DNA of 64,000 nt. It comes from Bdellovibrionota bacterium FG-1. Lineage in GTDB: Bacteria; Bdellovibrionota; UBA1018. The DNA lies in assembly GCA_051382295.1 (NCBI GenBank), contig JBBCAW010000012.1, positions 32,001 through 96,000 on the forward strand, in the 5' to 3' direction. The position numbers were made by a program, and so were the translations under genes. A model generated the notes under the pieces. That model saw only the letters and a list, made by a program, of their open reading frames with translations. It searched no databases and had not been told where the DNA came from. Each line of letters opens with the position of its first letter. Position 1 is the stretch's first letter. Shown piece after piece: positions 6,748-57,700 of this stretch.

Positions 6748-7847
6748 CGTGCAATTCTCAGGCATTCGGCGAGTACGGCATTAACGCCAATGCTTCGCAT
6801 GCACTTTTGCTGCTCGATGATGCAAGGCTCGGTCGCGCACCACGGCGGCATGCCGGGGTCGGCGTCTTGTCGGCAGGCGAGATTATCAAGAAAGAGAAAG
6901 GGATGGCGTTCTGGGGGATAGGGATGCCACTCAAAGGGATGTTCTGGGCCAAAAATAGTCACCGTGGGAGTATTGACGGCAACGGCTAAATGGCGAGGGC
7001 CGGAGTCATTTCCCGCAAAAACTGAAAGAAGACTAAGGACGGCCATCGTTTGTCGGAGTGAAAGTTGGCCCTCGGTGACGATTCGAGAACGGATCATTAC
7101 TCGTTCGGCTGTGTTAGGGACGGAGTGTGCCAAGGCATCATCGACGGCTTGGAGAAACTCATGAATTCGATTGGCCTCATCGGGGCCGGCTATCGCAAGC
7201 ACTCCGCCTTCTTTTTGTCTCGACCACTCGACGGCCAGCGAGGCGAAGCGATCCATCGGCCAATTTTTTGCCGGGCGACTTGCCCCTAGACCCAGGCCTA
7301 GAACAGGTTGTAAGAGCCTTAATTTTGAAAACCGTTCTTTGGCCGCGGACTGTTCAGATGCTGAAAGGTAGAGTTGGGGAAGTCTGCCGGCTGGGACATG
7401 AATTCCTAAGGCGCGAATGGTATCCATGTCGCGTTCAATGGTGGGTTTGAGTGTGCCCTTGCCTGGGACCGAAACTGTGGAGTATCGATTCTTTTGTCGA
7501 TGTCCATGAAAGTGGATCGCGCGAACCTTAGCTCCTGTTCCAAAAGACAGCATGGAACTGGATGGGCTCGCATGAAAATTGACAGCCCAATCGAAATGCT
7601 CTTTTCTGAGGCGAAAACCTAGGCCGGCGATGGCTTTAGCGCGAGCGCCACGGTCCTCGTGGCGTTCATAGGGCCAAATTCGGTCAACCGCAGGATGTCC
7701 TTCGAGAATGGATGCCCACGGGGTGTGAACAACAACGTGAATCTCGGCGCCCGGGAAAGTTTTTCGAAGTTCAGTGAGTGGAGCGGTCATTAAGACTGTA
7801 TCACCGAGTGCGCGTAATTTGACGGCCAAGATTTTGCGAGGAGGCAT
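6744..7847 (-). CDS. Glycosyltransferase family 9 (LPS heptosyltransferase-like)
   Basis: LRALGDTVL, KNWP, GNDSGPRHLAVAVNTPTVTIFGP motifs. Confidence 0.9.
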   Translation of the reverse strand: MPPRKILAVKLRALGDTVLMTAPLTELRKTFPGAEIHVVVHTPWASILEGHPAVDRIWPYERHEDRGARAKAIAGLGFRLRKEHFDWAVNFHASPSSSMLSFGTGAKVRAIHFHGHRQKNRYSTVSVPGKGTLKPTIERDMDTIRALGIHVPAGRLPQLYLSASEQSAAKERFSKLRLLQPVLGLGLGASRPAKNWPMDRFASLAVEWSRQKEGGVLAIAGPDEANRIHEFLQAVDDALAHSVPNTAERVMIRSRIVTEGQLSLRQTMAVLSLLSVFAGNDSGPRHLAVAVNTPTVTIFGPEHPFEWHPYPPERHPFLFLDNLACRQDADPGMPPWCATEPCIIEQQKCMRSIGVNAVLAECLRIAR

Positions 7848-25041: not shown

Positions 25042-25648
25042 TGGGTTGATCTGGTTCGGGTGTTGCGGAGGGTTGGCGTGGGGGGATGAGCCTCCTCGTT
25101 TTTTTGTGGGAGGTGGAGTTTTAGCCCATAACTTGGGTCAGTACTCAACCCAGCCGAGTGGGATGACCTCCTTGGTTTCCTCTGTCTTTCCTGAGCTTGT
25201 GCTTTCAGCTTGGCTGCCTGTGGATGAGGGCCCGTGGAGTCTGTCGCCTTTTTTGGCGCTCACGCCCGGGATTCCATTCACTGGCGCGACTGTTTTTGCG
25301 CATACTACCGCTGACGGAGGCGAAAAAACGCAGCTCTTGCGATTGGCGGTTCGGGCTCAAAGGGATCTAGGCCTTGAACCCTGGAGCGTGGGGCTTTTTG
25401 GTGGGTTAGGCGTGTTGGCTTGGACGATCCGAGGAATGGGGGGCACGATTGAACTCAATAATGGTAATTCGAAGAGTATTTTCGGTCTGCCCTCCGAGAC
25501 TTCCACTTCACGTGTTTTTTACGGTGAGCTGGGAGTAGGGGTGCAACGGTGGCGTTTCAGGTGGGAGAGCTCAATTTTGATGACGGGGGCCTTGTCCCCC
25601 CGACGAGCGGTGAGCGTTACAACGCAGCTCAGTTTTGGGGTGTTTTGA
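25004..25648 (+). CDS. Hypothetical outer-membrane beta-barrel-like protein
   Basis: Alternating beta-strand pattern and C-terminal Phe; start uncertain. Confidence 0.5.
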   Translation: MCARWLNLRPIFSGLIWFGCCGGLAWGDEPPRFFVGGGVLAHNLGQYSTQPSGMTSLVSSVFPELVLSAWLPVDEGPWSLSPFLALTPGIPFTGATVFAHTTADGGEKTQLLRLAVRAQRDLGLEPWSVGLFGGLGVLAWTIRGMGGTIELNNGNSKSIFGLPSETSTSRVFYGELGVGVQRWRFRWESSILMTGALSPRRAVSVTTQLSFGVF

Positions 25649-26497
25649 ATGCGAAGACGACTGTTTTTGGCATGGTTTAGCACGTTTTTGATTTCTATTT
25701 GGGGGAGCGTGGGTGCCTTCGCTTTTACGATTCAAGTCGAGGACGGAACCTCCGCTCAGATTTTGGCTTGGGTGTCTCCTGAGATCACGGTCGATGTTAA
25801 TTCCAAGGATTGTGTTGCCGCGGGCGTGTCTGCCGAAACGCTGAATGCCGCGATTGATCGGGGTTTTGCGGTCTGGAATTCCTCTCCGGCATCGGCGCTC
25901 AAACTCATTCGAGGGGGTGAGGTGACAAAAACTTCGGATGAGATCACCAGCCAGGCTTCGCAGGGCAATCCTTTGATTCTTTGTGATGCCAATATGGGCA
26001 AGGATCTGGGTTACGAGAGTTCTGAGACCAGTAATATTCCAGCGGTGACGAGAATTCTTCGGCTGGATTCTCAGCGGCACATTGCATTGGCCGCGATGTA
26101 TATCAATGCCGATACCGCTCAGGCTGCCAACGTCAAGCGAGTGAATGAATTTCCGGACCTTTTGGCTTTGATCATCGCGCATGAGGTGGGCCATGTTTTT
26201 GGGCTGGGGCATTCGGTCGATCCCAATACCCTGATGTATTACGATGCTACGGCTAAAAAACAACTTTCGCTCGGGCAGGATGATATCGAGGGGGTGACCT
26301 ACCTCTATCCCCGCCATGAAATCGGCAACTCGCTTCCTTTGGGGTGCGGGACGATCACGCAGTCGGGCCCTCGATCGAGGGGGGGCAAGGGAGGGGCAGG
26401 GAGCACTGGTATTGTAATGGAGTGGTTTACGCTGCTGTGCGTGGTTCTTGTTTTCGACCGGTACTCCGCATATAAGTTTTCGAGGAGAACTTCCTGA
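25649..26497 (+). CDS. Secreted matrixin-family (M10) zinc metalloprotease
   Basis: Signal peptide, [12 protein letters not shown], Met-turn (TLMYY), C-terminal GCG plus TM tail. Confidence 0.85.
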
Positions 26498-48379: not shown

Positions 48380-49357
48380 ATGGCGTGGAAAAAGAAGGAA
48401 AAACTCATCAGCCGTGAGGAGGCGGTGGCCGCGGCCAAAAAAGAATTTGCGCCGTATTGGGTCGGGTCTGAGCCGCTCGTGGCCGGAGTCGTGACGCCTG
48501 AGGGGGGGGTGAGTGTTCATCCGCTGGACCTGACTTTTGAAAAGAGTGCTTGGATCTTTATACTGGTCGATTTAACGACTTTTTCCGGCGAGTCCGCTTT
48601 AGATATCGCGCGGGACTGGCATCGGCGCTATTCAGGTTACAGCGTTAATTTTGTTTTGATCACTCGTTCGACTTACAAATTTTTAGATACCATTGCGACT
48701 TTTCAGCCGATGTTCAAAAAACATGGGTTGATTTTTCCGGCAGTATTGGATCACGAGGGGCTTTTGTATCGTGCTTTCAATGCTTCTCCCGCCATTCCCA
48801 AAGTTGTTCTTCATGCTAAAGGTAAAATTATTTTTGAAAAAGTTGGACCTCAATGGTTTGAAGGTGCTGAAAGTCTGCTTCAACATTATTTGCGGGAGTC
48901 GGATCCGGGCTTGCCGTTTAACCTGCCTTTTGAGGGAACCCATGAATTGCCGGCTGATCAACTTCGAGTGGAGCTGGGTCGCTCCACTCGCCCCAAAGGT
49001 TTGGCTTTTGGTGGAAAATGGACCCAAGAGCAGGACTGTATCGTCGCTCGCGATGGCACAGCCGTGATGCGGTTTAAGAGTCCCTCCGCTCGGATCTCGT
49101 TCGTAGCGGAGCGTCTTTCGACGGAAGACCGGCGTTCGCGAATTAAGATCGAGGCCAATCGGGATTCGGCTTTCGAGGCGATCTCCGGTGCGGATTTGAC
49201 GATGGCCGAAGATGGTTCGTCTGAGCTCAAGGTGGCTGGACCCATGATTTATCACGCGCTCGTGAACCTGCCGGAGCGTTTGCGGGAAATAACTCTTAAA
49301 TTTCCCGATGCCGAGCGGTTTCCTGTAGCGCTTTATGGGATCAGGTTAGGTTCTTAA
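48380..49357 (+). CDS. DipZ-like thioredoxin-fold protein lacking CxxC
   Basis: FILVDLTTFSGE..RDWHRRY, FPAVLD and a C-terminal GKW..QD.I beta domain resemble DipZ soluble domains. Confidence 0.5.
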   Translation: MAWKKKEKLISREEAVAAAKKEFAPYWVGSEPLVAGVVTPEGGVSVHPLDLTFEKSAWIFILVDLTTFSGESALDIARDWHRRYSGYSVNFVLITRSTYKFLDTIATFQPMFKKHGLIFPAVLDHEGLLYRAFNASPAIPKVVLHAKGKIIFEKVGPQWFEGAESLLQHYLRESDPGLPFNLPFEGTHELPADQLRVELGRSTRPKGLAFGGKWTQEQDCIVARDGTAVMRFKSPSARISFVAERLSTEDRRSRIKIEANRDSAFEAISGADLTMAEDGSSELKVAGPMIYHALVNLPERLREITLKFPDAERFPVALYGIRLGS

Positions 49358-50285
49358 GAACTTTTGCTACGGAGTCTCGCGGTTTTTTTGGCAGTCCTGC
49401 TTCGTCGGCAAATTTGCAGAACTGGCCAATAGCATCCCGCACTTCATCGATGATTTGAGGTGAATGTTTTAATCCGACCTCTAGCGCGAGGGTTTTTAGA
49501 TGGTCTCGAGTAGGATTGCGTCCTTCGCCTGCAACCAGCATCATATGTTCCCCGCCCGGCCCTGTTGAGTAGGTCAAATCGTAGGCGGGACTAGGGTGCC
49601 AAATCCCTTTTTCATTCATGAGAAATGCAAAATTTCGAGCATGATCATCGCGGTTTCTGCTGAAAACATTGAAACAGGCACGTCGAAACATTTCTGAAAC
49701 GTCAGCTTCATTTCGAGTCAGCTTGCGAGTCACTAATAAAAGTTCGCGATAGCCAAGAGCAGGGTAGGTGTGCCCCTTGAGGGGATCCACCGAGGGCAAT
49801 CAAATGGTCGAGGTCCTGACCCTCCACCTGATCTAGAACCATTTGGATCTCTGAAGCGACCTCGTCGAGATCAACGACTGAGGGCTGGTCTTGTTCGAAT
49901 TCTGGCTCATAAGTGAGAGCGCCCATTCCGTGCGACCCAACGTAGGCTAGACGATCCAGGGGCCCCAAAGATCCCGACGGAGGCGCCCGGCCCTTGCGAT
50001 TCGTCGTTCCAGCAACAAACGCCCCCAGCCGTCTGGCAGGCTGTCTTCGAAAACCCCCATTAAGCCCTGAAAAATAGCTGGATCACCGACCTTCACCCCG
50101 GAAGCAAGAGGTAGATTGAACGGCGAAAGTTCGAGGCCACGGTTTATAAAATCGGCGTCGTATTCGAAGAGAATTTCTCGATTTTTTTGTGCGAGCCTTC
50201 CAACTTTTTGCTGAACTCCTTCTTGGAGTTCTAAAAAGACTGTAAGGAGTTGGATAGGTGCGCGGTTTTTTTTGAGTATCATCAT
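49341..50285 (-). pseudogene. hipA: hipA toxin pseudogene (frameshift plus internal deletion)
   Basis: Three frames give the HipA N-domain (FEDSLPDGWG), LDRLAYVGSHGMGAL...GGSPQGA and C-terminal NRDDHARNF...SPAYDL; the central kinase region is missing. Confidence 0.88.
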
Positions 50286-50614
50286 TCCACTCCGGTCCCT
50301 CCGGTTCTTATGGCCCGTTTCCGTGAGGTGACTTTGTTCTGTCCCAGTGCCTCATCCAGGGAGGTATATTTGGGCGTTTCAAAGAGGCGCTCGAATGTGC
50401 TTTCGGCCCCAAGTGCGGTGGCGATCCGCAAGGCATTTTCAACAGAGACGTGCCCCGTTTTTTCAAAGCGGTGAAGCGTTGCAACACCGATGCCGGAGCG
50501 GTCCGCATGCTCCTGTTGGGTCCAGTTTCGAGAGAGTCGTAGAGCCTGAGTGCGTTGACCAATCGCTAAAAGGATATTTGAATAGGATTCAAGGCCTGTC
50601 CTAGAATTGATCAT
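50282..50614 (-). CDS. HipB-like Xre antitoxin
   Basis: LRLSRNWTQQEHADRSGIGVATLHRFEKTG HTH; 4-bp overlap with hipA. Confidence 0.8.
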   Translation of the reverse strand: MINSRTGLESYSNILLAIGQRTQALRLSRNWTQQEHADRSGIGVATLHRFEKTGHVSVENALRIATALGAESTFERLFETPKYTSLDEALGQNKVTSRKRAIRTGGTGVE

Positions 50615-53710: not shown

Positions 53711-54098
53711 AACCAAATCGAGCAGAACTCTCGTCCTGAGATCTCCGGTTAAACGCTGTACCCGGATCACCTCAGAGCTGTCCTAAGCAGTCGGCAATTG
53801 TTTTGACTAGAAAAACCAAGAGCTTGGCGAGGACAAAAAGACGCCAAATTCTAAATTTAAGTTTTTCGAGTCGGATCCGATGAGCATAATAGATGGTTCT
53901 ATTACTTTTCATAGGATGCCTCCTTTCTTTTTAGTGAAGAAGGGAGGTATTTCCGTCTACTCTGCGCGGTTTGGCAGGAACTTCAAAAGCAAAATTAATG
54001 CCGATGCCTGCTGGAACTTACAAAGGTTTTATCCCGTGGTCCGTCCGGATTTCGGTGAGGGTATTCGAAATTGGGACCAATAGGGTGTGCACAAGTCG
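53711..54098. repeat. Long direct repeat copy 1 (388 bp)
   Basis: Colinear without indels with 57313-57700 and with 54621-54971; most diverged copy in the 53980-54040 segment. Confidence 0.95.
53772..53912 (-). CDS. 46-aa basic/hydrophobic peptide, putative type I toxin (copy 1)
   Basis: Manual translation MKSNRTIYYAHRIRLEKLKFRIWRLFVLAKLLVFLVKTIADCLGQL; AAAGGAGG SD 6 nt before ATG; below the ORF-track cutoff. Confidence 0.8.
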   Translation of the reverse strand: MKSNRTIYYAHRIRLEKLKFRIWRLFVLAKLLVFLVKTIADCLGQL

Positions 54099-54120: not shown

Positions 54121-54648
54121 ATGAATATTGATCTGCGCCCCATCCATGTCAAAGATTGGAAATTGCTTTTGAAGTGGCGCAATGATCCTCAAGTGACGCG
54201 TGACCTTGCTTTTCAAGCGATGTCTGAGGAAAGGGTCAGGCAGTTCATTCAGGAGAAGGTTGACTCGACGACAGATCGGACTTTTGTGATTGAATGTGAC
54301 GGGCAGGTGATCGGATATACTTTGATTGAGTCAGACGTTCTGAATAAAAAATGCGAAGTCGGCATCATTATTGGTGAGAAAGGATATTGGGGAAAGGGGA
54401 TCGGAAAGCAAGTTTGTCGAAAGATCACCGACATTGCCATTTCGGAGATGGGTTTACACCGGGTTTTGGCCGTGGCTTCTGAAAGAAATCTCGGATCAAT
54501 TCGTTGTTTTTTGTCTCAAGGATATCGCGAAGAGGGGCGTCTGCGGCACGCCAACTATCGCGACGGTAAGTTTTATGATCTTGTGCTGTTGTCTATGTTG
54601 TCCCACGAGTGGAATCATATACCAAACCGAGCAGAATTCTCTTCCTGA
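54121..54648 (+). CDS. RimJ/RimL-family GNAT N-acetyltransferase
   Basis: EVGIIIGEKGYWGKGIG acetyl-CoA motif, GLHRV, NLGSIRC, GYREEGRLR; last codons read into repeat copy 2. Confidence 0.9.
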   Translation: MNIDLRPIHVKDWKLLLKWRNDPQVTRDLAFQAMSEERVRQFIQEKVDSTTDRTFVIECDGQVIGYTLIESDVLNKKCEVGIIIGEKGYWGKGIGKQVCRKITDIAISEMGLHRVLAVASERNLGSIRCFLSQGYREEGRLRHANYRDGKFYDLVLLSMLSHEWNHIPNRAEFSS

Positions 54649-54971
54649 GATCTCCGGTTAAATGCTGTACCCAGATCAACTCAGATTTGTCCTAAGTAGT
54701 CGGCTGCAGTTTTGACTAGAAAAACCAGAATCTTGACGAGGACATAAAGACGCCAAGATTTAAATTTGAGTTTTTCAAGTCGGATCCGATGAGCATAATA
54801 GTTGTTTCTATTACTTTTCATAGGATGCCTCCTTTCTTTTTGACGAAGAAGGGAGGTATTTCCGTCTACTCTGCGCGGTTTGGCAGGGACCTCAAAAGCA
54901 AATTTGATGCCGACGCAACCTCGAAATTACGAGGCTTCAGGGCTGTTACCCGTCCGGATTTCGGTGAGGGT
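54621..54971. repeat. Long direct repeat copy 2 (351 bp, lacks last ~36 bp)
   Basis: Colinear with copies 1 and 3 up to TTCGGTGAGGGT, then unrelated sequence. Confidence 0.95.
54681..54821 (-). CDS. 46-aa basic/hydrophobic peptide, putative type I toxin (copy 2)
   Basis: MKSNRNNYYAHRIRLEKLKFKSWRLYVLVKILVFLVKTAADYLGQI; same SD and stop position as copy 1. Confidence 0.8.
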   Translation of the reverse strand: MKSNRNNYYAHRIRLEKLKFKSWRLYVLVKILVFLVKTAADYLGQI

Positions 54972-55055
54972 GACTAGAATCCGGACCCGGAAAGTTCAAA
55001 AGCCCCTCCTCCCTTCCCAGCCCAAAAGCAGCGACCAGGAAGGAGGGGCGCAGTT

Positions 55056-56333
55056 TTAGTTTTTGTAAATCGGCAAAATTCCAAAGGGAGCAGCAGGGGC
55101 TTTTGAATAAAATAACCGACGTCCCCAAGGTGCTTTTTGTTTGCTGACGATTTTACCGTCACAGCTGACTTCGGTGCGAAATCCACCCTGATCAAATATC
55201 CCACCCAATGGCCAATCTTCCGGAGTATCGGTACATGAGGTGGCTGAGCATTCAATAGGCCAAAAGGGTCCCCCGGCCTCTTTCTGTCCTGGGGCGAATT
55301 GAGTGAAACAAACCAATCCGAAAGTTCGGCACTCAGGATTCGAGAATTCGACGTGAAGATGGTCAACGACTCCAATCGCTTTCACGGTTTTGGTGAGGAG
55401 GGCGTTTCCAAAAAAATCACGACAAACAGCGACGCATTGATTGTTCATATCCTTTTCGGTATTCGGGACTCCCGAAGGATAGGCATCACTTTCTTTTTCC
55501 TCCCAATATCTAATAAAATCTAAGCCAATGGTTTTACAGGCGCCGCCGGTTGAGACTGGCTGATAAATGACGGGTAATGGCTGATTGCCGGATTTTTCCA
55601 CAGAAACCTGCCAGCTGAAATGGGGCGCAATGGGTTGAAGTTTGTTTCAGTCAGAGGTGGGGGCGAATAAAAAGCCGACCATCTTTCGGGCTTCTTCGGA
55701 GTCATGAGCTTCGTAGTAAAGACGAGCTAGGCCATAAAGCACTTCGTGAACAAAAAAGGCGGCTTGATCGGTAGGTGTGAATTTATCAAATACGGTTTTA
55801 GAGATCCGGAGTGTGCCATCCGATTCGTAAAATCCTGCGTATTGGAGCTCGCACCCTTCTGGGATCACAGCGGGAAAGTGCGAGCCTAAATCAGAAACCC
55901 CGGGCATCGTGACACCAGCAGGTAGGAAATTGACCTGGGTCTTGAATTTTATGAGGAGATCCACAAAGTCCTGTCCGATGTATGGATTCCACTGGGCTAA
56001 TCGTGCTTGGATTTGATTGATTTGCGCATCAGCGCTGTCTTGAGATTGCGGAATCGTCAGGCCAAAACGAATTTCGGCTTCATAGAGGTCGAGAAGGTGA
56101 GCGGAAACGACCTTGCGATCAGTTCCTAGGCAGACCACCGACGCTCCGCCTCCGCTCGAGCCCGGCCCTGTTGAAGTGCTCGTTCTGCCTCCGCCGATTT
56201 TTTCGGTTACTACTGAGGTACCCAGAGCGGGTGGGCGATCGGATGGGGAGGGCGTGGTCCCTTGTTTACTGCAGGCGCAAAACACCAAAAGGAATCCGAC
56301 GGTTGAAAGAAATTTTAGGGCAGAGGATTTCAT
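55056..56333 (-). pseudogene. Hypothetical lipoprotein split by one in-frame TGA
   Basis: ORFs 55647-56333 and 55056-55601 share a frame (...FAPTSD*NKLQPIAPHFSWQVSVEKSG...); lipobox CAC; GGGASVVC...LLDLYEA and HEVLY motifs. Confidence 0.7.
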
Positions 56334-56476
56334 ACATTTTTCCGTTTCCGCTGCGATTTAACAAGAGGAGCATCATTTAGCAGCGTTTCGCCACGTAAAA
56401 AATGGCTGATTTTTAGGAGCTAAACTAGATAATAATTATGTTTTTATTACCTTAATTGTTATAAATTATTACTCAT

Positions 56477-57286
56477 ATGGGTGAGCAAAGTGTTTTTTCT
56501 TTTTCAGACTATAAGCAGTTTCTTTGTCATTATGTGGATGTTCACAAAAAAGAGCGGGGCAGTATCCGGCGGATGGCTGAAGCGGCGGGTTGTCAGCGAT
56601 CCTACATGTCCCAAGTTTTAGGCACTCATGTGCATTTAACACGGGAGCAGGCGTGGGGTCTGTGTTCTTTGTTTGGTTTTAAGGATCTTGAGTCGCAATA
56701 TTTTATGGTGTTGATCGATCTCGCGCGCGCGGGAAGCAAAAAATATCGGGAAAATTTGGAGTCGCAGCGAAAAATGTTAAAACAAAGGTCCGAGGATCTT
56801 TCGGAACGCACCACGCGTAAGCGGATCGAGTCTGAGGATTTTGCGATGGAGTATTATTCGGCGTGGTATTGGAGCGCGATCCATATTTTAGTTTCTATTC
56901 CGGGCTTTCAGACTGTGAAGTCAATTGCGGCAAAGTTGTTTCTTGATGAAAAAACAGTCGAAAACAGCCTTAAACGATTGGCTGTGATGAAATTGGTCAC
57001 TCAAGAAAAAGATCGATGGTGTTTCAGGCAAGAAAGTATTCATGTGCCAAAGGATTCGCCTTATGTGGTCTTTCATCATCGGAATTGGCGAGATCGGTCG
57101 GTTTTATCTTCACAGGCCTCGGATCACGAGGGGATTCATTACACGATGGTTCAATCCGTGAGTCGAGACGTGTTGCCTCGAGTTCGTCAGCTTTTTCTGG
57201 ATGCTATAGAGCAAGCCAATCGTATTGCTGGCCCTTCTGCTCCTCAAGAGTTGGTCGCGATTAACTGTGACATTTTTTCAGTATGA
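56477..57286 (+). CDS. TIGR02147/DUF4423-like HTH regulatory protein
   Basis: VFSFSDYKQFL, MAEAAGCQRSYMSQVL HTH, YYSAWYWSAIHIL, FHHRNWR, terminal INCDIF; pattern of the family expanded in Bdellovibrio and Fibrobacter. Confidence 0.8.
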   Translation: MGEQSVFSFSDYKQFLCHYVDVHKKERGSIRRMAEAAGCQRSYMSQVLGTHVHLTREQAWGLCSLFGFKDLESQYFMVLIDLARAGSKKYRENLESQRKMLKQRSEDLSERTTRKRIESEDFAMEYYSAWYWSAIHILVSIPGFQTVKSIAAKLFLDEKTVENSLKRLAVMKLVTQEKDRWCFRQESIHVPKDSPYVVFHHRNWRDRSVLSSQASDHEGIHYTMVQSVSRDVLPRVRQLFLDAIEQANRIAGPSAPQELVAINCDIFSV

Positions 57287-57312: not shown

Positions 57313-57700
57313 AACCAAACCGAGCAGAATTCTCATCCTGAGATCTCCGGTTAAATGCTGTACCCGGATCACCTCAGATTTGTCCTAAATAGTCGGCTAT
57401 TGTTTTGACCAGAAAAACCAAGATCTTGGCGAGGACAAAAAGACGCCAAGATTTAAATTTCAGTTTTTCAAGTCGCGTCCGATGAGCATAATAGGTTGCT
57501 CTATTATTTTTCATAGGATGCCTCCTTTCTTTTTGACGAAGAAGGGAGGTATTTCCGTCTACTCTGCGCGGTTTGGCAGGGACCTCAAAAGCAAATCTAG
57601 TGCCGATGCTACCTCGAAATTACGAGGCTTCAGGGCCGTTACCCGTCCGGATTTCGGTGAGGGTATTCGAAATTGGGACCAATAGGGTGTGCACAAGTCG
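57313..57700. repeat. Long direct repeat copy 3 (388 bp)
   Basis: Colinear with copy 1 over its full length. Confidence 0.95.
57374..57514 (-). CDS. 46-aa basic/hydrophobic peptide, putative type I toxin (copy 3)
   Basis: MKNNRATYYAHRTRLEKLKFKSWRLFVLAKILVFLVKTIADYLGQI; same SD and stop position as copy 1. Confidence 0.8.
   Translation of the reverse strand: MKNNRATYYAHRTRLEKLKFKSWRLFVLAKILVFLVKTIADYLGQI

Follow-up and report, generated by a model that had tools for sequence, protein, structure and literature searches.

A repeated small gene of uncultured Bdellovibrionota bacteria: a type-I-toxin-like peptide mRNA with a predicted sigma-54 promoter and ribosome-site lock

Copies, spread and peptide of the gene family

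The window, by which we mean the whole stretch of 64,000 nucleotides analysed here, carries on its minus strand three copies of a repeat of about 300 nt (D1; 53711-54010, 54620-54919 and 57313-57612), which are 88–89% identical and each contain a 46-aa ORF. We conclude that each repeat is a copy of a small gene, so far unannotated, of uncultured Bdellovibrionota bacteria, and that the copies belong to a family of mRNAs of about 265 nt that encode cationic, hydrophobic peptides of 41–53 aa. The element looks wired to sigma-54 and flagellar controls and not to a partner antisense RNA, and we would give an even chance to the reading that it is a type-I-toxin-like, locked membrane-peptide mRNA run by life-cycle regulators of the host. 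Predicted features of the copies and of related loci are collected in Table 1.

Table 1. Features of the three window copies and of loci elsewhere that share the loop motif (window positions unless a locus is named).
Feature	Position	Strand	Basis or details
Copy 1, two candidate enhancer (bEBP) dyads, centred about -93 and -73	54043-54077	.	Gibbs motif GTCCGAAWTTCGGAC
Copy 1, sigma-54 -24/-12 promoter, predicted start about 53977	53989-54003	-	consensus; RpoN in genome
Copy 1, 5' arm of 14-bp closing helix P1	53962-53975	-	fold, arm pairing, covariation
Copy 1, hairpin P2, ANGGAN hexaloop, overlapping the foot of the anti-SD strand	53947-53960	-	covariation, loop census
Copy 1, SD-locking hairpin (anti-SD 53937-53947, SD 53919-53929)	53916-53950	-	fold, covariation
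Copy 1, ORF of the 46-aa cationic/hydrophobic peptide	53772-53912	-	coding signal, helix model
Copy 1, codon 3-9 hairpin P4	53886-53906	-	fold; covariation; NN versus YY/CC codon pairs
Copy 1, stop-codon stem, loop carrying GGGUACAGC at 53755-53763	53736-53775	-	fold
Copy 1, 3' arm of P1, end of homology	53712-53725	-	repeat alignment, arm pairing
Copy 2, whole element	54621-54986	-	dyads 54952-54986, sigma-54 site 54898-54912
Copy 2, parts	P1 arms 54871-54884 and 54621-54634; ORF 54681-54821; loop motif 54664-54672	-	
Copy 3, whole element	57314-57679	-	dyads 57645-57679, sigma-54 site 57591-57605
Copy 3, parts	P1 arms 57564-57577 and 57314-57327; ORF 57374-57514; loop motif 57357-57365	-	
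Weak antisense sigma-70-like site within copy 2 ORF	54772-54799	+	9/12 score; not conserved family-wide
Weak antisense sigma-70-like site, copy 3 counterpart	57465-57492	+	not conserved family-wide
Flagellin motif loci	L230 (G000 C62, 105360 and 104272)	-	orthologues L238, L245, L247, L249, L260, L270, L278, L281, L289
Two-hairpin ncRNA (sigma-28 sRNA)	L120:1404-1540 = G000 C3 about 25603-25740	+	

A sequence-only reading of this region had let the repeat homology end at the 3' arm of a helix that joins the two ends of the RNA. This boundary was borne out, the homology stopping sharply there in all three copies, but the repeat had been drawn too short at its other end. Homology among the window copies goes on for about 80–120 nt further 5' and covers a promoter and enhancer region that had been left undescribed. 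As to the surroundings, a GNAT acetyltransferase gene (54121-54648, plus strand) sits between copies 1 and 2, and its last codons overlap the opposite-strand 3' arm of copy 2. The interval between copies 2 and 3 (55056-57286) holds two minus-strand ORFs of 181 and 228 aa without family match, together with a divergent DUF4423 gene with an HTH-like stretch. At 49341-50614 on the minus strand an HTH gene is followed by HipA N-terminal and HipA C-terminal pieces as separate ORFs, which is a split or degraded hipBA-like module.

An iterated profile detected 28 family loci in the genome, 25 intact and 3 broken, and a separate profile count of the same genome gave 26. The peptide profile matched in 18 of 75 genomes of the taxonomic family and 24 of 116 of the order, and in a sample across the phylum in 21 of 401 genomes, every one of them within the same order. 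No relatives were found in viral contigs, plasmids or phages; neither peptide nor RNA had a match above threshold in Pfam, NCBIfam, PADLOC or Rfam, and a search of the window region with Rfam gave nothing near a gathering score. Searches of the peptide with Foldseek against the PDB and in the ESM Atlas assigned no family, the nearest named Atlas cluster being TisB (0.77; a lead only), and the only hits of protein searches were unnamed or hypothetical proteins, in 58 representatives (10 of which were looked up) and 69 clusters. Broken or internally deleted copies lie at G000 C9:1413-1862, C9:3815-3889 and C96:5044-5106 and at L085, L089, L105, L109, L111 and L112. A group II intron splits the peptide ORF near its KLK codons in L107, L110, L203 and L206; scores against RF00029 (gathering score 40) were 42.6 bits for L110 and 38.4 for L107; L203 matched weakly at D1-D4 and L206 not at all.

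For the comparative analysis 102 candidate loci were collected, 28 from the genome itself and 74 from relatives. Of these, 73 had an ORF of 40–54 aa together with a -12 box and the 3' loop motif and were kept; five loci were dropped for lack of the -12 box, five for lack of the motif, one because its 3' DNA was short, and the others because of ORF length, a missing SD anchor or too little upstream DNA. Two further loci lacked a usable 5' or 3' arm and were taken out, which gave 71 members, with 67 in alignment A4 and 70 in the anchored scans; the arms of P1 were located by ungapped anchoring. Because a locus needed the -12 box and the loop motif to enter the 71-member set, counts of those two features within it are circular, and since family members are kin, the counts are not independent samples. 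Twelve full-length loci, mostly from other taxonomic families, served as a later check set. P1 has at least 13 of 14 pairs in 10 of them, the promoter regex matches in 8 and the motif regex in 10, one of these matches being spurious.

The ORF carries a coding signal. Identity at codon positions 1–3 is 0.56, 0.69 and 0.48, and pN is 0.36 against a pS of 0.61 (57 sequences): the ORF is a gene under purifying selection. The peptide has a median net charge of +7 and a hydrophobic C-terminal half, with a median 19-aa hydropathy of 2.0, and was modelled as one helix with a pLDDT of 82; the modelled helix found no match among PDB structures. A short hydrophobic helical peptide under coding selection has the build of type I membrane toxins, and a toxin role is putative. 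Two other readings were set aside. A SECIS reading is out as the stop codons are mixed (TGA 41, TAG 15, TAA 14), and a T-box/tRNA reading as the loop triplet does not follow the peptide's Tyr/Cys codons.

RNA helices and the ribosome-site lock

The sequence-only reading had proposed four pairings in the minus-strand RNA. In copy 1, CCUCCCUUCUU would pair with AAGAAAGGAGG at 10 of 11 positions and bury the SD, by a stem that is constant in all three copies around a variable loop; a 5' element at 53961-53974 would pair with 53713-53726 at 12 of 14 positions (13 of 14 in copies 2 and 3); and further stems would form at the stop codon and at codons 3-9. We found all of these as described, the loop of the SD hairpin differing between copy 1 and copies 2 and 3, and all are present in the minimum free energy folds. 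These folds have z-scores of -4.2, -5.2 and -6.1 for the three copies, with 0 of 200 shuffles as stable for each. When G.U pairs are counted, the 5'-3' helix grows to 15–16 of 17. Among 1500 random 330-nt genome windows, in which 50x80 registers were searched, an end-to-end match of at least 12 of 14 Watson-Crick pairs occurred in 1.0% and of at least 13 of 14 in 0.13%.

Comparison across the family indicates that the 5'-3' helix P1 is under strong structural selection. Over 67 sequences, 98.1% of its cells are paired and 13 of its 14 pairs show two-sided changes, while pairing falls to 33–50% in slid-register controls. The two arms match each other better within a member than between members (cognate 13.7/14, non-cognate 11.6/14). 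P1 was also recovered by RNAalifold on aligned homologues, one of the checks that had been suggested together with the original claim. Like aapA/IsoA, the RNA has a 5'-3' long-distance helix. For P1 as a possible terminator, the U bias that follows it is only moderate, with 3.7 versus 1.7 T per 8 nt.

The SD hairpin is paired in 87.9% of cells, with two-sided changes at 4 of 8 pairs, including GGAGG/GGGGG with CCUCC/CCCCC; in this alignment MAFFT puts the window-type rows one column off. An unbiased covariation scan over 70 members ranked at its top P1, P2 (z 11.9), P4 (z 9.1), a small 3' hairpin (z 7.7) and the SD/anti-SD pairing (z 7.1). In P4, the stem at codons 3-9, Asn codons covary with Tyr/Cys codons and pairing is preserved. 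Helix 5 of the 67-sequence count was 57.5% paired, a value affected by alignment slippage. A spacer/GGGU pairing offered by RNAalifold was not adopted, as two-sided changes are nearly absent from it and other stems compete for its bases.

In folding models the SD is closed in every form of the RNA. Its mean unpaired probability is 0.07 in the full-length RNA and 0.07–0.08 in all six shorter forms (70 members), and it stays at 0.07 when the 3' arm is removed. Opening the ribosome site costs 18.8 kcal/mol in the full-length RNA versus 2.5–12.4 for the comparison set of 9 ordinary window genes; these energies describe equilibrium folding, which can miss kinetic switches. The cost is 20.2 kcal with the 3' arm removed, 19.0 after trimming to the 3' loop and 13.4 in the nascent RNA. 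A drop of more than 2 kcal was seen in 0 of 38 runs (36 distinct members) on arm removal and in 6 of 38 on trimming to the 3' loop. Once freed, the 5' arm offers the anti-SD no conserved complementary stretch, and in the folds the arm did not move there. Folding and covariation thus both point to cis-encoded sequestration of the SD.

It had been suggested that the control logic of hok and aapA operates here, with the full-length mRNA kept inert by 5'-3' pairing and activated by 3' trimming. The buried SD and the selected helix fit this suggestion, but the activation step is not supported, because the SD lock is local and lies outside the long-range helix. In aapA3, according to the descriptions in PMC6733600 and PMC5416894, the SD is held within the long-range helix itself, and translation takes place from the truncated form; here, in silico, the helix does not hold the SD and 3' truncation does not free it. 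In these models P1 would not be the switch.

In its overall build the element otherwise resembles aapA/IsoA of Helicobacter pylori. As described in PMC5416894 and PMC6733600, those loci also have several chromosomal copies, a short membrane peptide, an upstream anti-SD hairpin, a 5'-3' long-distance helix and structure inside the ORF. There is, however, no sequence match, the promoter here is of the sigma-54 type with an enhancer, and no conserved antisense RNA was found. With hok/Sok the element shares 5'-3' pairing and a transient 5' hairpin (partly from PMC6733600), and while chromosomal hok copies are often insertion-broken, truncated copies and a group II intron occur here. Here, in contrast, no conserved leader ORF was seen and the 5' arm lacks an alternative anti-SD partner; the Sok antitoxin model RF01794 gave 17.5 bits, below its gathering score of 59. 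The element thus appears to work like a type I toxin mRNA, with a putative toxin role, without belonging to either aapA/IsoA or hok/Sok.

Type I systems are defined by their antisense antitoxin in the account of PMC8594479. We looked for a conserved antisense antitoxin across family members and found none, and none emerged among trans candidates from complement sites and co-folding. The element cannot yet be classed as a toxin-antitoxin system. A canonical aapA/IsoA-type arrangement, in which a sigma-70 -10 within the ORF drives a cis-antisense RNA and 3' trimming activates the message, would match the shared build as those two papers present it (multiple copies, membrane peptide, 5'-3' helix, antisense promoter inside the ORF), and antisense promoter matches do pile up, 25 at Arg-6 and 9 at Arg-9, with sites in window copies 2 and 3. 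A score of 8/12 or more for the antisense -10 over the Tyr codons is found in 30 of 70 members, which leaves room for an antitoxin. However, only 13 members reach 9/12 or more, and the 8 Cys-Cys members read AACAAC there. The codons at this -10 are accounted for by hairpin P4. Antisense sigma-54 sites occur in 0 of 70 members and sigma-28 sites in 2 of 70, and the window scan for antisense promoters was no richer than shuffles, with 4 sites against 5.4 expected. Together with the position of the SD outside the long-range helix and its behaviour on trimming, this makes the arrangement unlikely. In the part of the literature that was searched, no type I system with a sigma-54 promoter or in Bdellovibrionota came up, and the combination found here appears undescribed.

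Predicted promoter, candidate enhancer dyads and a candidate CsrA hairpin

Sigma-54 promoters follow a -24/-12 consensus. In a view unfiltered for the -12 box, the best sigma-54 site ends in TGC at 79 of the 86 loci with upstream DNA; GG stands at -25/-24 in 61 of 71 members, and P1 begins 13–15 nt past the -12 C in 65 of 71. The genome encodes one copy of RpoN and has 31 matches to the activator domain PF00158, 25 of them strong, so that a -24 GG/-12 GC box at fixed spacing occurs together with RpoN and bEBPs. As the box lies at a fixed distance before P1, the two arms would mark the ends of the RNA, with a predicted start 1–3 nt before the 5' arm and an end at the 3' arm, the limit of homology.

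Upstream of the promoter, the palindrome GTCCGAAWTTCGGAC was found in 55 of 71 members versus 6% of random windows, but in 3 of the 12 later loci, mostly from other taxonomic families; binding by a bEBP is putative. The dyads cluster at -63, -73, -83 and -93, one helical turn apart (period 10.2–10.4), and each window copy has two, at -93 and -73. Genome-wide, 88 strong palindrome sites were counted versus 25 in a shuffled genome, and 22 of the 25 sites that combine box and dyad are family members, the matrices having been trained on the family. Strong palindrome sites also lie 250–340 nt upstream of two sigma-54 activator genes (G000 C12:221315 and C39:12500), whose products are candidates for possible autoregulated cognates. 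Elsewhere, a 90-aa ORF without Pfam match stands behind a sigma-54-like box (L119:1410-1840; G000 C14 about 7409-7840), with near-perfect copies of the enhancer-like palindrome on both flanks.

A sigma-54, activator-dependent, small structured RNA from a lineage with a complex life cycle is known in Pxr of Myxococcus xanthus (PMC10217877). Pxr is described there as non-coding, whereas the present RNA encodes a peptide under selection.

Hairpin P2 had been left out of the sequence-only reading. Its covariation indicates a hairpin in competition with the lock: bases at the foot of the anti-SD strand also belong to P2, which often forms in models that force the ribosome site to open. An ANGGAN loop caps P2 in 59 of 70 members, and P2 with this loop matched in only 4 of the 12 later loci, which are mostly from other taxonomic families. 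The genome has a csrA gene within a flagellar cluster, after flgL, next to a gene that we take to be fliW. An ANGGAN hairpin loop and csrA thus occur in the same genome. CsrA usually represses, and as csrA is near-universal in the order (108 of 116 genomes), its co-occurrence with the element is uninformative. According to PMC7652899, the ANGGAN hexaloop is the loop bound by RsmE, and CsrA opens the SD hairpin of ymdA, a precedent for activation; PMC13443453 describes CsrA of Bdellovibrio bacteriovorus as repressing a GGA-bearing hag leader. In the leaders of E. coli ymdA and P. aeruginosa phz2, both activated by CsrA, a GGA site likewise lies beside or within an SD-sequestering hairpin (PMC7652899). 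The present RNA differs in having one clear hexaloop and a lock extended by ORF-internal stems, and CsrA binding is putative here.

In a test of 18 members, holding P2 lowered the opening cost of the nascent RNA from 13.1 to 10.1 kcal but was of little help in the full-length RNA (19.1 to 18.2 kcal). The loop GGA may instead pair with the SD-AUG spacer (89% paired), which could account for its conservation without CsrA, and the closing pair of P2 is G-C, unlike the ACA/UGU stem of the SELEX ligand given in PMC7652899. Gating by P2 and CsrA is the least certain step of the model presented below.

The GUACAGC loop, a proposed model and its rivals

The stop-codon stem displays GGGUACAGC, in which GUACAGC is largely unpaired. 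The motif holds its place in the 3' loop while the stop codon shifts 2–36 nt from it, and changes within it are nearly all transitions. Outside the family the exact motif has 16 sites in the genome, including two hairpin loops at a flagellin gene, of which one lies in its sigma-28 leader and the other in its trailer, and a bulge of an RNA encoded between genes. Among 60 flagellin genes gathered with PF00669, it occurs in the leader hairpin of 10 (0.41 expected), one each in 10 of 11 genomes; the hairpin with the GUACAGCA loop thus belongs to one paralogue per genome.

The motif is also present, as GGTACAGC, in 42 of 42 homologues of a sigma-28 sRNA, which were collected via a 5'-half pattern that does not contain it. 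This sRNA is essentially single-copy and has matches in 70 of 116 genomes of the order at E<1e-4. It has a conserved FliA-type promoter (TTAAG-N16-CCGATA; consensus as given in PMC3627812), a U-tail and covarying stems, usually lies upstream of a glyoxalase/VOC-family gene, and has no Rfam match near a gathering score. Its promoter is of the same type as that of the FliA-driven attack-phase sRNAs that PMC3627812 describes in B. bacteriovorus, promoter type being the basis of the comparison.

Co-folding of sRNA and mRNA gave -4.1 kcal against -8.1 for shuffles (8 members), so direct pairing is not predicted, and neither Hfq nor FlbT was found in the genome, which is 97.7% complete. The simplest reading of these results is that a shared RNA-binding factor, for now a candidate, reads GUACAGC in the mRNA, the flagellin leader and the sRNA. 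The shared loop would then point to a new post-transcriptional regulator of flagellin, and it gives ready substrates for testing.

In the reading to which we gave an even chance, each repeat would be transcribed on its own and encode a short membrane peptide that is cationic and hydrophobic, and one enhancer-binding activator may fire the copies together on a life-cycle or stress signal. The ribosome site would be easiest to open in the nascent RNA with P2 held, CsrA bound to the ANGGAN loop being the most plausible holder. Once complete, the RNA would fold closed and inert, with P1 as an end clamp for stability and definition of the 3' end instead of a switch, and a host RNA-binding factor of the flagellar regulon may read the GUACAGC loop. 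On-demand transcription and the lock would replace a dedicated antisense antitoxin, and the peptide would most likely depolarise or remodel the cell's own inner membrane. A fuller version is possible, if doubtful: up to about 25 locked copies would form an antitoxin-free life-cycle toxin module fired by a dedicated sigma-54 activator, its gates being a CsrA-FliW switch and a GUACAGC factor that also marks the flagellin leader and a sigma-28 decoy sRNA.

If the locked toxin-like mRNA is run in this way, a membrane toxin would be silenced by another route, through an enhancer-dependent promoter and RNA-binding proteins of the host, and a toxin-like mRNA would be tied to the motile/sessile cycle of a lineage, UBA1018, that PMC13200544 describes as potentially predatory. 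Since every element has natural compensatory variants, the model is testable in a laboratory host.

Other readings of the loop and the lock fare worse. The closed form could act as a dual-function RNA that titrates CsrA through P2 and the GUACAGC factor, with the peptide as a non-lethal modulator of a membrane protein, e.g. of the flagellar machinery. This would suit a motif that keeps its position relative to a moving stop codon and is common to the single-copy sRNA and the flagellin leader, and sigma-54-driven sRNAs do exist in myxobacteria (Pxr; PMC10217877). We regard it as decidedly unlikely: a single ANGGAN loop per RNA makes a poor sponge, the family is patchy (24 of 116 genomes) next to a near-core sRNA, and several independent SD locks suggest a harmful product. 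That a trans-encoded RNA opens or silences the message through the anti-SD or the GUACAGC loop is highly improbable. The transitions in the loop could be tolerated by a fixed RNA partner through G.U pairs and the sigma-28 sRNA has SD-like stretches, but the co-folding energies given above speak against pairing, none of 28 intergenic sites complementary to the loop motif stood out, and Hfq is among the genes not found. Largely refuted, and the least probable of all, is a MITE-like non-autonomous mobile repeat with the 5'-3' complement as terminal inverted repeats, since, for all the dispersal of copies in variable neighbourhoods and the sharp end of homology at the 3' arm, homology runs about 100 nt beyond the 5' arm so that inverted repeats do not bound the element, the preserved G.U pairs of P1 point to RNA and not DNA symmetry, the ORF shows coding selection, and viral contigs, plasmids and phages yielded no relative.

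Apart from the family, a run of short GC-rich palindromic repeats lies downstream of a thioesterase-like gene (G000 C78:25300-25560).
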